Shown here in pieces: positions 25,452 through 40,334 of a DNA stretch of 43,172 bases. This DNA is from a virus. Taxonomy: Duplodnaviria; Heunggongvirae; Uroviricota; Caudoviricetes. The stretch is from the IMG/VR virus record IMGVR_UViG_2675903609_000006; one strand, 5' to 3'. Each line of letters opens with the position of its first letter. The first letter of the stretch is position 1. The position numbers and the translations under genes are program-made. The notes under the pieces were generated by a model. That model saw nothing but the letters and a program-made list of their open reading frames with translations. It made no database searches and was not told the origin of the DNA.

Positions 25452-25778
25452 TTACTCCTTAGAGCCACCAAACTTATTACCGATTACTCGCATTGCAGCC
25501 CCACGAATAGCATCAACACCGATCAGCCCCACACCACCACCAATGGCAACAGATAGTGATTTAGGCCATCCGACATACTCAAGAGCGGATGCAAAAGTCA
25601 GCGTCAGAGCGCCACAGAGTAGAATTTCGAGTGTTTTTCGCTTCCAGCCGCCACCACCGCCAAAATAGGCAATACGTAAACCAACCATAACAATCGACAT
25701 AATCACTGCGCCCAGCGGTGTGTCTCCACGCCACCAGCTCTGGAACAACTCCAGCCAAGTATTTGGGTTATGAGGCAT
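25452..25778 (-). CDS. Holin (putative, three TM segments)
   Basis: 108 aa, three hydrophobic helices, immediately upstream of the endolysin. Confidence 0.6.
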   Translation of the reverse strand: MPHNPNTWLELFQSWWRGDTPLGAVIMSIVMVGLRIAYFGGGGGWKRKTLEILLCGALTLTFASALEYVGWPKSLSVAIGGGVGLIGVDAIRGAAMRVIGNKFGGSKE

Positions 25779-25921: not shown

Positions 25922-25952
25922 GAAACGACAAAACCCGCTCGACGGCGGGTTT
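25922..25952 (-). terminator. tR'-like terminator upstream of the lysis cassette
   Basis: Hairpin AAACCCGC-TCGACG-GCGGGTTT followed on the minus strand by a T-rich tract. Confidence 0.45.
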
Positions 25953-26042
25953 AAGCTGTGTGGCGAAGTAACCACTCTTAACACAGTAATCTAGAAAATG
26001 CGGACCGCGTTAGTGATTTTTTCAACTTTTTGATTTATCTTA

Positions 26043-26070
26043 TTGAACACAAGAAACCACTGCCTATAAA
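26043..26070 (+). promoter_or_regulatory. Sigma70-like promoter for the Q-lysis cargo module
   Basis: TTGAAC (26043-26048), 16-nt spacer, TATAAA (26065-26070); an AAGGA ribosome-binding site precedes the ATG at 26140. Confidence 0.4.
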
Positions 26071-26139
26071 TCATATCAACCCAAACCATAAAAACCAAAA
26101 AATCAAATGATTACATTAACTAGATAAGGAACAAAGTTA

Positions 26140-27225
26140 ATGAAAGAAAGCCGCAGCAAGGTCATTCAATATAAACGTGCAGTCATCCCTAATTGCACAG
26201 CAACGCTTCAACAGATCATAGAATCTATAATTTCTGAAAATGGCGCAGCCTATAAAGTTAGCGCAAGAAGAGAACAGATTAACCCCTCCGATAGCAATAG
26301 TGGATTTAGAGTGGTTAACCGCAGCAGCACTTTCAAGACAGTGTTATTCGGGCAACTTATTTTGTTTGAACAAGGTAAAAGCCAAACACTTATGACAATC
26401 GCTGATGATGTCAATTATTATGACATCAATGCTATAACATCGAAGCAAATTAAATTAGCCGAAGACGAAAAAATAAGTGAAGCTGAAAAACAAAAAATAA
26501 CACGAGAATTTATTGATTCAATACTTTACTTTGGGATTCGTGATAATCATGTGATGATCGTCCAATCACCGGCTCTAAGGACTAAAGACATAGAAAGCCA
26601 TCTTAATTGGTTAATCCATTCATTTAGCACTATTTTTAATGGTGACGACTTCCTTGTACTTCAAGATAAACCAACTGAAGACACCATAAAAAAAATGCAT
26701 GAAAGTCCAGTCAAGAAAATAAATTTCGGCAGTATCCCAATCAAAAATTCTGATTCTGAAGATGTAGTTAAAATAAATAATATAAGTAACACAAACGACC
26801 TCCCCACAACAATAAAAGAACAGGTCGAAAAAGTTAAGAAAATAAAATTCATGCCAACTGGTAAAGGTGGCGATATTATAAAAGCTGCTTTTGGCGAAGC
26901 ATGGTTTAATAATTTACAACTGGAAGATTCTCTTGATGAATCCAATTTACAAGTTAATCTAGAAATAACCTATTTCCGCAAGACAAACAAAGATGGTCAA
27001 CGTGTACTCGATACTTTAGCAACTTCACTCAGAAATATAGACGATGAAGATATTAGTATAAACCTTCAAGGTGGTGGCATAATTAAAGGCAGTGATTTAA
27101 AACTATCCGGTAAAGTAAACGTCCAATATAACAATGGACTTATTGATGAAAATGATTTATATTTACAAATGCACAAATGGCTGACTTCAAAGGTTCAAAC
27201 TGGAGAAGTAAAAGTTAAAAACTAG
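26140..27225 (+). CDS. Hypothetical soluble protein (361 aa), first gene of the Q-lysis cargo module
   Basis: Long AT-rich ORF on the strand opposite to flanking phage genes; Lys/Asn/Asp/Glu-rich; no family recognised. Confidence 0.7.
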   Translation: MKESRSKVIQYKRAVIPNCTATLQQIIESIISENGAAYKVSARREQINPSDSNSGFRVVNRSSTFKTVLFGQLILFEQGKSQTLMTIADDVNYYDINAITSKQIKLAEDEKISEAEKQKITREFIDSILYFGIRDNHVMIVQSPALRTKDIESHLNWLIHSFSTIFNGDDFLVLQDKPTEDTIKKMHESPVKKINFGSIPIKNSDSEDVVKINNISNTNDLPTTIKEQVEKVKKIKFMPTGKGGDIIKAAFGEAWFNNLQLEDSLDESNLQVNLEITYFRKTNKDGQRVLDTLATSLRNIDDEDISINLQGGGIIKGSDLKLSGKVNVQYNNGLIDENDLYLQMHKWLTSKVQTGEVKVKN

Positions 27226-27563
27226 AACCAACAGGAGGCGGAAATGAGCTTCTTTAAATTTATTATAAGATTCTTATCCGCCTTCGCTTTTGGGTTTGCA
27301 ATATTTTACTTTGCATCTAGAAAAATTGACTTAAGTGGCATATCTACTCCATGGTCATTAATAACCTTATTAGCATTCCCTTTCAGTTATTGTATCGCAG
27401 CCTTTTTTAAAGTTTCTGAAGCCGACGAAAACACATCACTATCAGATAATGAACTAAGAAGATTACGACCGATAATTGATGCAAAAAAAAGACATCTTGG
27501 ATTTCTTATCTTTTTTTATCTTATTGCTGCTTTTTCAGGAGCAATTGGGGTAATGACTCCAAC

Positions 27564-28067
27564 TTATTGATAGTGTTTTATGTTCAGATAATGCCCGATG
27601 ACTTTGTCATGCAGCTCCACCGATTTTGAGAACGACAGCGACTTCCGTCCCAGCCGTGCCAGGTGCTGCCTCAGATTTAGGTTATGCCGCTCAATTCGCT
27701 GCGTATATCGCTTGCTGATTACGTGCAGCTTTCCCTTCAGGCGGGATTCATACAGCGGCCAGCCATCCGTCATCCATATCACCACGTCAAAGGGTGACAG
27801 CAGGCTCATAAGACGCCCCAGCGTCGCCATAGTGCGTTCACCGAATACGTGCGCAACAACCGTCTTCCGGAGACTGTCATACGCGTAAAACAGCCAGCGC
27901 TGGCGCGATTTAGCCCCGACATAGCCCCACTGTTCGTCCATTTCCGCGCAGACGATGACGTCACTGCCCGGCTGTATGCGCGAGGTTACCGACTGCGGCC
28001 TGAGTTTTTTAAGTGACGTAAAATCGTGTTGAGGCCAACGCCCATAATGCGGGCTGTTGCCCGGCAT
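27564..28067 (-). CDS. insB: IS1 transposase InsB
   Basis: 167-aa product recognised as IS1 InsB. Confidence 0.9.
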
Positions 28068-28261
28068 CCAACGCCATTCATGGCCATATCAATGATTTTC
28101 TGGTGCGTACCGGGTTGAGAAGCGGTGTAAGTGAACTGCAGTTGCCATGTTTTACGGCAGTGAGAGCAGAGATAGCGCTGATGTCCGGCGGTGCTTTTGC
28201 CGTTACGCACCACCCCGTCAGTAGCTGAACAGGAGGGACAGCTGATAGAAACAGAAGCCAC
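27986..28261 (-). CDS. insA: IS1 InsA
   Basis: 91-aa product recognised as IS1 InsA ([32 protein letters not shown]...). Confidence 0.9.
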
Positions 28262-28516
28262 TGGAGCACCTCAAAAACACCATCATACACTAAATCAGTA
28301 AGTTGGCAGCATCACCAGCAATTGGTATGTTCGCTATTTCCAGAGAGTCGATAGTTTATCTATATTTTATATCTGCTTGTGGAGGAGGCATTGCTGCTGC
28401 AATGTATTCTTTTTTCTTTATCAGCTCAATAAACAGCGAAATACAGAGATTTAAAAGCATCTTATTACACAGAGCTGAAGCGAATAAAAAAACGAAAGAA
28501 TTTATAGACTCATTAA

Positions 28517-28548
28517 ACAAAAAGGCGGATTGAAATCCGCCTTTTTGT
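28517..28548. terminator. Bidirectional rho-independent terminator shared by Q and the cargo module
   Basis: Hairpin AAAAGGCGGAT-TGAA-ATCCGCCTTTT flanked by A-runs and T-runs, between convergent stops at 28533 and 28554. Confidence 0.6.
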
Positions 28549-28553
28549 TTTCT

Positions 28554-28931
28554 TCAATCCATTTCTAATCTAATATCCAACATTGAAAGACAACCTTCGA
28601 TAAATCCTTCAGCCATTTTAATCTCAATGCGTATAAGTTTCTCGTCCTTTTTCTTTTCTTTAGCAATTTTTCTCTTAGAAAGACCATACAAATAATGTGC
28701 TACTAGTAACGAATGCTCATAAGGTTTTTTCTTCTTCAGCCGAGCAAGGCACCCCTCAATGATTAATCCGTCGGCATCAGTACATGAGAGTCTGTTTTTA
28801 CCTGTTTGTGGTAAAAGCCCTTTAAATCCTGCTGCGATTGGAGAATAGTCAACGCCTGAATTATCACTAGCAGCCCATCCCCCCCAACGCTCAAGAACCA
28901 TCTGAATATCACGCATCAAATTTCTCCACAA
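28554..28931 (-). CDS. Late-gene antiterminator Q (QuuD-like)
   Basis: 125 aa resembling recalled E. coli DLP12 QuuD (MRDIQMVLERWG.WAA...IAAGFKGL...ARLKK...ALDIRLEMD). Confidence 0.75.
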   Translation of the reverse strand: MWRNLMRDIQMVLERWGGWAASDNSGVDYSPIAAGFKGLLPQTGKNRLSCTDADGLIIEGCLARLKKKKPYEHSLLVAHYLYGLSKRKIAKEKKKDEKLIRIEIKMAEGFIEGCLSMLDIRLEMD

Positions 28932-34289: not shown

Positions 34290-34964
34290 ATGAAAACAAT
34301 CCATGACATCCGGCGGTCTAACGCCAGAAAACTGAGAGATGGTGTTGGCGGGAATTCTTCCTTTGCCACTATGATTGATCGCGAGCCAACCCAGACCAGC
34401 AGGTTTATGGGAGATGGTGCTACTAAAAATATCGGTGACAGCATGGCACGACACATCGAAAAATGTTTCGACCTGCCTGTTGGATGGCTCGATCAAGAAC
34501 ACCAGACAACGAACATCACAAAAAAACCTGATGTTTCAATCACTAATAAACAAATCACATTAGTCCCTGTCATATCATGGGTACAGGCCGGAGCATGGAA
34601 AGAAGTTGGATATTCTGAGGTTGATTTGAGCACAGCAGAAACGTATCCCTGCCCTGTACCCTGTGGGGAAATGACTTATATCTTGCGGGTGATAGGTGAT
34701 TCAATGATTGATGAGTACCGCCCGGGAGACATGATTTTTGTCGATCCTGAAGTACCAGCCTGCCACGGTGACGACGTTATTGCATTGATGCACGATACAG
34801 GTGAAACCACCTTCAAAAGGTTGATAGAAGATGGGACACAGCGTTATCTCAAAGCGTTAAACCCAAACTGGCCTGAGCCTTACATTAAGATCAACGGTAA
34901 TTGCTCTATAATTGGAACTGTGATTTTCTCAGGAAAACCAAGAAGATACAAAATCAAAGCCTAA
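34290..34964 (+). CDS. cI: CI-type repressor with S24 (LexA-like) autopeptidase domain
   Basis: C-terminal domain with VIGDSM nucleophile and downstream Lys (FKRL), similar to recalled P22 C2. Confidence 0.85.
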   Translation: MKTIHDIRRSNARKLRDGVGGNSSFATMIDREPTQTSRFMGDGATKNIGDSMARHIEKCFDLPVGWLDQEHQTTNITKKPDVSITNKQITLVPVISWVQAGAWKEVGYSEVDLSTAETYPCPVPCGEMTYILRVIGDSMIDEYRPGDMIFVDPEVPACHGDDVIALMHDTGETTFKRLIEDGTQRYLKALNPNWPEPYIKINGNCSIIGTVIFSGKPRRYKIKA

Positions 34965-38854: not shown

Positions 38855-39204
38855 TGGAGCCATACAGCCTCACACTCGATGAGGCCTGTCATTTTCTCAA
38901 GATATCCAGACCGACTGCCATTAACTGGATACGCACAGGGCGTCTTCAGGCAACACGCAAAGATCCCACTAAGAATAAATCTCCTTACCTCACAACACGA
39001 CAAGCCTGCATTGCGGCTCTTCAGTCTCCGCTGCATACTGTCCAGGTGAGCGCGGGTGATGGCATAACAGAGGAAAGAAAATGTCACTCTTCCGCAGAGG
39101 TGAAATATGGTACGCCAGTTTCACATTGCCGAACGGTAAAAGATTTAAACAGTCTCTTGGAACAAAGGACAAAAGGCAGGCGACAGAACTCCATGACAAG
39201 CTAA
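38854..39204 (+). CDS. Excisionase-like HTH protein (3' end uncertain)
   Basis: ATG at 38854 preceded by AAGAGG; N-terminal HTH-like segment; frame overlaps the int start by ~120 nt. Confidence 0.4.
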
Positions 39205-40244
39205 AGGCTGAAGCATGGCGGGTCAGCAAACTTGGTGAAATACCTGATATAACGTTCGAGGAAGCGTGTGTCAGGTGGCTTGAAGAGAAAGCACATAAAA
39301 AATCACTGGACGATGACAAAAGCCGGATCGGATTCTGGCTTCAACATTTCGCAGGAATACAACTAAGAGACATTACTGAATCAAAAATTTATTCAGCAAT
39401 GCAGAAAATGACGAACCGGCGTCATGAGGAAAACTGGAAACTCAGGGCAGAATCATGCAGAAAAAAAGGGAAACCTGTTCCAGAATACACGCCAAAACCA
39501 GCGTCCGTTGCAACGAAGGCTACGCATCTTTCATTTATAAAGGCCCTACTAAGAGCCGCAGAGCGTGAATGGAAAATGCTGGATAAGGCACCAATTATTA
39601 AAGTGCCTCAACCAAAGAATAAACGGATCCGCTGGCTGGAGCCCCATGAAGCACAAAGGCTGATTGATGAATGTCCGGAGCCATTAAAGTCTGTTGTTGA
39701 ATTTGCACTGGCAACAGGCTTAAGACGCTCGAACATCATCAACCTTGAATGGCAACAAATAGATATGCAGCGCCGGGTGGCATGGATAAACCCGGAAGAG
39801 AGTAAATCAAACCGCGCAATTGGCGTTGCGCTGAATGATACTGCATGTCGCGTATTGAAAAAACAAATCGGGAATCATCACCGTTGGGTATTTGTGTACA
39901 AGGAAAGCTGTACCAAACCAGACGGAACGAAAGCGCCAACAGTAAGGAAGATGCGGTATGACGCAAACACAGCCTGGAAAGCGGCGCTGAGACGGGCTGG
40001 TATTGATGATTTCAGATTTCACGACTTGAGACACACCTGGGCAAGTTGGCTGGTTCAAGCCGGAGTCCCGTTGTCAGTTTTACAGGAAATGGGAGGCTGG
40101 GAGTCTATCGAAATGGTTCGTCGATATGCTCACCTTGCACCTAATCACCTTACCGAACACGCACGGCAAATAGACTCGATCCTGAACCCATCGGTCCCAA
40201 ATTTGTCCCAGTCAAAAAATAAGGAAGGTACTAATGATGTGTAA
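39081..40244 (+). CDS. int: Tyrosine integrase (site-specific recombinase)
   Basis: 387 aa with catalytic motifs ([24 protein letters not shown]...RYAH); ends 15 nt before the tRNA. Confidence 0.9.
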
Positions 40245-40258
40245 CTTATTGATTTTAA

Positions 40259-40304
40259 TGGTGCCGATAATAGGAGTCGAACCTACGACCTTCGCATTAC
40301 GAAT
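40259..40304. repeat. Proximal attachment-site core (3' 46 nt of the tRNA)
   Basis: Identical to 433-478. Confidence 0.8.
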
Positions 40305-40334
40305 GCGCTGCTCTACCAACTGAGCTATATCGGC
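40259..40334 (-). tRNA. thrW: tRNA-Thr (anticodon CGT) - integration target
   Basis: Reverse complement reads GCCGATATAGCTCAGTTGGTAGAGCAGCGCATTCGTAATGCGAAGGTCGTAGGTTCGACTCCTATTATCGGCACCA (76 nt, CCA end at 40259). Confidence 0.9.

Follow-up and report, generated by a model that had tools for sequence, protein, structure and literature searches.

Here we analyse a 43,172-nucleotide stretch of tailed-phage DNA (IMG/VR record IMGVR_UViG_2675903609_000006; hereafter the window) that carries a two-gene cargo, or 'moron', between the genes for a lambda-family holin and the Q antiterminator. The cargo lies on the + strand at about 26017-28548, and both flanking genes lie on the - strand (holin, 25452-25778, from the annotation of matching genes; Q, 28554-28931, from the RefSeq annotation of an identical gene). 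Its left edge was set by aligning the holin-upstream regions of prophages with differing cargo, and its right edge by a hairpin just past the Q stop codon. Gene A (26140-27225, +) encodes an intact, soluble 361-aa protein, the proposed sensor; gene B, which follows it, encodes a small membrane protein and is split by IS1. Once IS1 and one copy of its target duplication are subtracted, the cargo is 1755 bp long. The open reading frames (ORFs) and their strands confirm the self-contained module described in an original prediction made from the letters alone, as does its GC content, which is 33.6% compared with 50.4% in the remaining window. We conclude, largely by analogy, that A and B are probably a RexAB-type module, expressed in lysogens, that acts in phage exclusion (abortive infection).

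Layout of the module and its interruption by IS1

Both genes are preceded by Shine-Dalgarno sequences (AAGGAA for A and AGGAGG for B) and are separated by 18 nt. A terminator shared by the two genes, as originally proposed, is well supported: the intrinsic-terminator hairpin at 28515-28550 is symmetrical, with a perfect 16-bp stem, an A-run before it and a T-run after it, and folds at -22.3 kcal/mol (z = -7.3; 0 of 200 shuffled sequences were equally stable). It was missing from the consensus terminator scan. The stop codon of gene B falls within the hairpin loop, and the hairpin lies 4 nt from the opposite-strand stop codon of Q. Upstream of gene A, the candidate sigma-70 promoter of the original prediction (TTGAAC-16 nt-TATAAA; 26043-26070, +) can be read from the sequence and is plausible as the module promoter. 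It was absent from the output of the consensus scan, its -10 element is without the final T, and this element is not conserved among relatives of 83-89% identity.

Gene B is interrupted by IS1 at 27549-28316, with insA/insB on the - strand. The element carries every hallmark of IS1: it is 768 bp long, has terminal inverted repeats with the canonical ends GGTAATGACTCC and GGTGATGCTGCC, contains the InsA (27986-28261) and InsB (27564-28067) ORFs, and is flanked by a 9-bp target-site duplication, AGCAATTGG, at 27540-27548 (left copy) and 28317-28325 (right copy). An IS1 insertion with a 9-bp duplication inside the membrane-protein gene, leaving gene A intact, had been correctly recognized from the start. 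The 5' part of gene B (27244-27548, +; codons 1-101 and the first two bases of codon 102) covers the first two transmembrane helices (TM1 and TM2), a charged central loop (E70/R72/R73) and most of TM3; the 3' part (28326-28533, +) covers the end of TM3, TM4 and a lysine/arginine-rich C-terminal helix. The present ORF reads into IS1 and stops at 27570. Because IS1 cuts the gene inside TM3, only this 108-aa stump is possible, and the 3' part is not expected to be made. Joining 27244-27548 to 28326-28533 (the second part had been taken to start at 28325, one base off) gives a repaired protein of 170 aa, rather than the ~177 aa first estimated, which equals WP_049592588.1 of Escherichia coli CFSAN061762. 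IS1-free alleles, which the original prediction had suggested looking for, were found in E. coli CFSAN061762 (CP042901, 3786181-3787797) and RM9088, and the repaired gene is 100% identical to them at the nucleotide level. A further intact allele is that of IMG/VR locus L058, whose A protein equals that of the window.

Over the 1784 nt of the module, the only difference from the CFSAN061762 allele is a synonymous one (26658, V173), and the insertion is therefore recent; because it is recent, the intact gene A needs no selection to explain it. We predict that the module in the window is a recent loss-of-function allele and that exclusion has been lost in this lysogen. The insertion had been seen as fitting the inactivation of a costly membrane effector, a selective account that no data support and that a single inherited insertion replaces equally well. 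Chance insertion is as likely as such selection, because IS1 is very abundant, both in Shigella and in the E. coli genomes searched, where IS1A matches number in the thousands.

The module matches that of Shigella phage SfIV at 99.4%. The SfIV genome paper described orf47-49 as a moron of low GC content that carries start and stop signals of its own, and its authors supposed that orf48 and orf49 had come with the IS1 transposase and might aid pathogenesis; the split of orf48 by IS1 went unseen (PMC3851460). We rejected joint arrival, since the IS1-free alleles are identical bar one synonymous base, and it is also contradicted by the position of the 9-bp duplication of IS1 itself, inside orf48.

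The broken allele bears on an explanation with reversed logic, in which A would be a toxic antiviral effector and B would only sequester it until infection. Such a Rex-like variant is known from mycobacteriophage Butters, whose gp30/gp31 pair has a matching two-gene layout (PMC12894663). With B truncated, a toxic A that nothing sequesters would be expected to damage its lysogen. The allele with intact A and broken B nevertheless persists in SfIV, an isolated temperate phage with a sequenced genome, and the truncated product falls in a cluster of 18 sequences (P0104). The 108-aa stump retains TM1-2 and the loop, so that some residual binding of A is possible; even so, we consider reversed logic very unlikely for A and B.

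Structure, pairing and genomic context of A and B

Protein A has many relatives. A word-indexed search gave a family of 90 clusters at 90% identity, and an exhaustive search with the A profile gave 821 clusters at 50% identity (E <= 1e-3), 315 of them reaching E <= 1e-30. Their hosts include Enterobacterales, Vibrio, Aeromonas, Pseudomonas, Marinobacter, Methylococcales (including Methylomonas), Chromohalobacter and Oceanospirillum. In PHROGs, A and B belong to the unknown-function families phrog_3482 and phrog_16807. The predicted structure of A has the split fold of the RexA/RdgC type, a fold made up of a split globular beta-sheet domain, an inserted dimerisation domain and a C-terminal helix that runs back to the first domain. 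Structural matches to the model include CHL4, CENP-N, RdgC and IML3, and the paper on the RexA structure names RdgC, IML3 and CHL4 as structural neighbours of RexA.

Protein B has four hydrophobic helices by hydropathy, and its AlphaFold (AF2) model agrees (helices 3-27, 35-61, 68-105 and 111-169; pLDDT 79); the four membrane helices of the original prediction thus stand, at the shorter length given above. Lysine/arginine clusters occur at the N terminus, in the central loop and in the C-terminal tail; the positive-inside rule would place all three on the cytoplasmic side. Homologues of B share four hydrophobic segments, and a set of 34 of them, reaching down to about 20% identity, shows conservation of E70, R72 and R73 of the central loop, of P46 of TM2 and, within the tail, of F144 and R151. 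In a Foldseek search of BFVD, the top match to B after its own truncated SfIV product was a 165-aa protein of mycobacteriophage Sbash (probability 0.99, TM-score 0.54/0.56, E 0.14). On account of its length this protein is very probably gp31: in the 77 Sbash features covered, of 89 in total, no other coding sequence (CDS) has 165 aa. R70 and D73 of gp31 fit the published mutants. The match between the two models is suggestive, not decisive. An RRL motif shared by B (R72-R73-L74) and lambda RexB (R70-R71-L72) was discarded, because two further RexB homologues do not keep it.

The two genes travel together. Wherever the sequence continues past A, in 28 of 28 Genome Taxonomy Database (GTDB) loci, and wherever there is room, in 78 of 78 IMG/VR contigs, a B-family ORF lies directly 3' of A, with gaps mostly of 0-26 nt; these ORFs, called from the first start codon, are about 160-207 aa long, mostly 160-184. 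The order A then B also holds in loci L003, L004, L008, L009 and L050. In 26 of the 78 viral contigs a CI-type repressor gene lies immediately upstream on the same strand, which is the cI-rexA-rexB order of lambda, and in 5 of the 10 genome loci tested the gene directly upstream encodes, according to Pfam, a repressor with HTH_3 plus Peptidase_S24 domains. A further arrangement, with Q immediately downstream on the opposite strand, is found in 24 of the 78 contigs; it is that of the window, whose copy sits between Q and the holin, outside the immunity region in which rexAB follows cI. Among complete E. coli genomes (n = 5426) the cI-linked variant was found in 43 and the Q-linked variant in 2, always annotated as hypothetical.

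The relation to rexAB is seen most directly in a pair of E. coli prophages. One (L003) carries an A/B homologue (53% identity), whereas the other (L057) has Pfam-positive RexA/RexB. Identity between the two prophages is 98.2% over repO-ydaT-ydaS-cI and 97.0% from kilR-gam-recT onward. They differ solely in the cassette that separates cI from kilR, which comprises 1693 bp with A/B in L003 (7878-9570) and 1392 bp with rexAB in L057 (2421-3812). A/B in L003 is thus an allelic replacement at the rex locus, and the RexA/RexB-like layout noted in the original prediction becomes a stronger analogy through this exchange. A partial cI-linked A/B cassette, covering 45% of the query, was also seen in a 43-kb E. 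coli 'plasmid' record (NZ_CP174001.1), perhaps a phage-plasmid, perhaps a prophage assigned wrongly.

The exchange with rexAB, together with the RexA-like fold, favours a Rex-type function over two other roles: a host-fitness or virulence moron unrelated to phages, and a superinfection-exclusion pair acting at the membrane against the entry of DNA. A virulence role was the suggestion of the SfIV paper (PMC3851460), and it agrees with a low-GC, moron-like module without annotated function in the serotype-converting phage of a pathogen, just as a block to entry agrees with B being a membrane protein. The occurrence of the family in environmental Gammaproteobacteria (Methylomonas, Marinobacter, Chromohalobacter, Pseudomonas and Oceanospirillum) misfits a role in Shigella. 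We regard both roles, even taken together, as highly improbable.

The pair is exchangeable cargo of temperate phages and satellites. P4-like satellites carry it at their distal end, in elements with integrase, Ogr/Delta, GPO, P2-type capsid and primase genes; we take this end to be the position described for defence hotspots. A distal pair was seen in P4-like or primase-bearing elements of Aeromonas veronii (L004-L006) and Oceanospirillum sanctuarii (L009/L020), with DUF6387 and an AlpA-type helix-turn-helix (HTH) protein present. A corticovirus-like prophage of Vibrio alginolyticus, with a P2_N/P2_C capsid protein and a GPA replication protein, also has the pair at its end, which shows that the module is carried on a non-tailed phage. 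In one strain (L051), two tandem 354-aa ORFs (2473-3537 and 3809-4873) precede the B-like gene and may represent a duplicated sensor gene.

The Q-holin slot and its other cargo

Between the cargo and the holin lies a conserved backbone block (25931-26016, -), in which a T-run follows a terminator-like hairpin (25952-25931). The block is common to prophages with differing cargo, and in L040, a relative that has no cargo, it comes immediately after Q; the insertion site of the cargo is thus bounded by the Q stop codon on one side and by the block on the other. The block is probably the late promoter, the Q-utilisation site and the tR' region. If it is, the cargo would lie upstream of the late promoter, and late transcripts would not cross the module. 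The idea that late PR' transcription runs antisense through the module was withdrawn, since alignment of the cargo junctions puts the conserved block between cargo and holin.

In E. coli prophages related to the window (L041-L045), the slot holds other genes, in every case on the same opposite strand as the cargo of the window. One variant encodes a KAP NTPase (PADLOC PDC-S20, 9e-177; PifA, 1e-17) and another an OLD/AriA-like ATP-dependent nuclease (HEC-04, 3e-47), in line with the original expectation that this position hosts defence cargo. PADLOC matched none of the three remaining variants, which are candidates for undescribed defence systems. One pairs a TIGR04255 protein with two hypothetical proteins, one combines an NA37 nucleoid-associated protein and a protein of 404 aa, and the last encodes a STAS-like protein along with proteins of 363 and 153 aa. 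The first cargo protein of the NA37-family variant was considered as a relative of A and proved unrelated. The slot is therefore an exchangeable cargo site often holding defence genes, and in this prophage group it is a place to seek more of them.

These observations can be set against the proposal that A acts chiefly in the prophage switch or in DNA metabolism, that B is accessory to it, and that the pair gives no defence against other phages. Lambda RexA without RexB can stabilise the lytic state, and RdgC modulates RecA. The proposal is at odds with the retention of B beside A in 106 of 106 loci with room, with the presence of the pair on elements that have no lambda-type switch (P4-like satellites and the corticovirus-like prophage), and with the defence genes that otherwise occupy the slot. 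Nor does the intact gene A of the window speak for it, being explained by a recent insertion (one synonymous difference in 1784 nt) and not by selection. On balance we think such a role unlikely.

The SfIV annotation has an anti-termination protein Q-like CDS of 363 bp (34586-34948), which uses a later start codon than the Q call in the window. At one end of the window, a tRNA-Thr (CGT) gene (40259-40334) adjoins a 387-aa ORF (together 39081-40334), at what is presumably the position of the integrase. ORFs of 304 and 437 aa lie at the other end (1039-3268), where we would assume the serotype-converting gtr genes of SfIV-type phages to be. The two ends fit an integrated SfIV-like prophage with short chromosomal flanks.

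Interpretation and comparison with known Rex-like systems

We favour a RexAB-type exclusion module because fold, architecture, obligate pairing and position agree, and because the Q-holin slot holds defence genes in sister prophages. The Shine-Dalgarno sites before each gene, the candidate promoter and the strong terminator also count in its favour. By analogy with lambda RexAB, the Sbash and CarolAnn systems, Pseudomonas putida RexABpp and Vibrio cholerae Sucellos, we infer defence activity for A and B, with the following possible mechanism. On infection, A would dimerise and bind DNA or a phage-made complex. It would then activate B through the conserved cytoplasmic loop of the latter (E70, R72 and R73), and B would oligomerise into a channel or pore. 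Membrane potential and ATP would collapse, and growth of the infecting phage would fail.

Several results weigh against this interpretation. No link to Rex proteins was found at the level of sequence (profile-profile E 0.087-0.62). In keeping with the original statement that the 361-aa protein is of no recognizable family, neither A nor B has a match in Pfam (E <= 1), NCBIfam or PADLOC-DB v2.0.0 (E <= 1), a 2023 release that predates Sucellos. Pfam RexA (PF15969) matched 0 of 149 A-family members, a sequence-profile search of the PDB returned no Rex link, and in hhalign comparisons A-family profiles gave non-significant values against a 29-sequence RexA alignment (E 0.11 and 0.61) and no significant link to lambda RexA. 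The B alignment behaved similarly against lambda RexB (E 0.17, non-significant; no match to Pfam PF15968), and comparisons with the Sbash pair were also non-significant (A against gp30, E 0.087; B against gp31, E 0.62). Structure is not free of difficulty either: the A model is of low confidence at residues 199-273, the RexA fold is also found in non-defence DNA-binding proteins such as RdgC, and the Sbash match to B has an E value of 0.14 in a class, four-helix bundles, that matches easily. Foldseek searches of BFVD returned neither lambda RexA with A nor RexB with B. Of the profile and structure searches that had been suggested at the outset, the structural ones thus yielded a RexA-like fold for A and an Sbash neighbour for B, and the profiles remained non-significant. 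Finally, the 28 genome loci have phage neighbours with no enrichment of known defence systems, and the only PADLOC matches around them are methyltransferases; the co-occurrence with defence islands that had been suggested as a check was not found, and the family lives in prophages, outside classical defence islands. There is a precedent on the other side: Sucellos and Sbash gp30/gp31, both RexAB-like and both lacking a Pfam RexA match, are demonstrated defences.

RexAB is the oldest known abortive-infection system, and its mechanism is still not understood. A/B shares with RexAB-type systems the adjacent, co-oriented genes with the sensor first and the small four-TM membrane partner. It differs from lambda RexA/RexB (PF15969/PF15968; RexA PDB 8TWQ), to which neither HMM nor profile-profile comparison found similarity, in several respects. 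A has 361 aa and RexA 279 aa, and A is set apart from RexA by a stretch of some 75 residues (199-273) whose structure was predicted poorly. B has 170 aa and RexB 144 aa; B carries an extra charged C-terminal helix, and its loop motif is ExRR where that of lambda RexB is YGYM. Lambda rexAB adjoins cI, whereas A/B in the window adjoins Q, and as Sbash and Butters illustrate, Rex-like pairs need not adjoin the CI repressor.

The actinophage systems (Sbash gp30/gp31, CarolAnn gp44/gp43 and Butters gp30/gp31) have Actinobacteria as hosts, unlike A/B. Of these, Sbash is the closest in dimensions, with a gp30 of 372 aa and a gp31 of 165 aa, and its proteins, like A and B, have no Pfam RexA or RexB match. 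RexB and Sbash gp31 are both predicted to have four TM helices, with the termini and central loop of gp31 in the cytoplasm, and gp31 is an experimentally validated RexB-like effector in which R70A and D73A in the central loop abolish defence (PMC6426596). B resembles gp31 in its four TM helices and in its charged central loop, which in gp31 is functionally critical. Butters follows a logic that is the reverse of the one proposed here. In P. putida RexABpp (PP_5643/PP_5644), PP_5643 is linked to RexA by HHpred at 98% probability (PMC12894663); this reported link sets it apart from the A family, which has no profile link, and the two are probably separate branches.

A pivotal comparison is that with Sucellos (SclA/SclB), which is encoded by a cassette of the V. 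cholerae superintegron. According to its report (bioRxiv 10.1101/2024.07.02.601686), Sucellos has a RexAB-like structure and no Pfam match, needs both genes, has its own promoter, is found outside integrons mostly in enterobacterial prophages, often in Salmonella, and includes an SclB modelled as a pore. Its features as described (two genes, a promoter and a prophage habitat) all fit A/B, and on this likeness in description the A/B family may be identical to Sucellos. From the primer names and a deletion mentioned in that report, we infer that Sucellos is VCA0367-0368. No V. cholerae member was among the named A-family relatives examined, and Salmonella was not seen among the named A-family matches. 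The V. cholerae cassette encoding Sucellos has been reported to hold an insertion sequence (IS) that renders the cassette immobile (bioRxiv 10.64898/2026.03.17.712381), a parallel to IS1 in the module of the window.

A/B is therefore already known if it is Sucellos, and a substantial new Rex-type branch if it is not. That it is a large unrecognized branch, distinct from lambda RexAB, the actinophage systems, RexABpp and Sucellos, is a possibility that we hold tentatively and with some doubt. The description of SfIV orf47-49 as a moron was known before (PMC3851460); new here are the constant pairing of B after A, the exact replacement of rexAB at cI-kilR, the CI- and Q-adjacent contexts and the defence cargo in the slot. 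The SfIV moron, once proposed as a virulence factor, would gain an exclusion function, one that SfIV lysogens are predicted to have lost through IS1. Only five Rex-like systems are counted as described in a 2026 paper (PMC12894663), and hundreds of 'hypothetical protein' clusters would supply comparative material, from the conserved residues of A to the ExRR loop of B, a candidate for the interface of sensor and effector. Natural cassette swaps in near-identical prophage backbones are, in addition, ready-made specificity experiments. If A/B is indeed a separate branch, it has diverged past sequence recognition while still being exchanged as a rexAB allele at cI, across at least four kinds of mobile element, and 'rex' would be an immunity locus of temperate phages in general, conserved in structure but hypervariable in sequence, and not a peculiarity of lambda.

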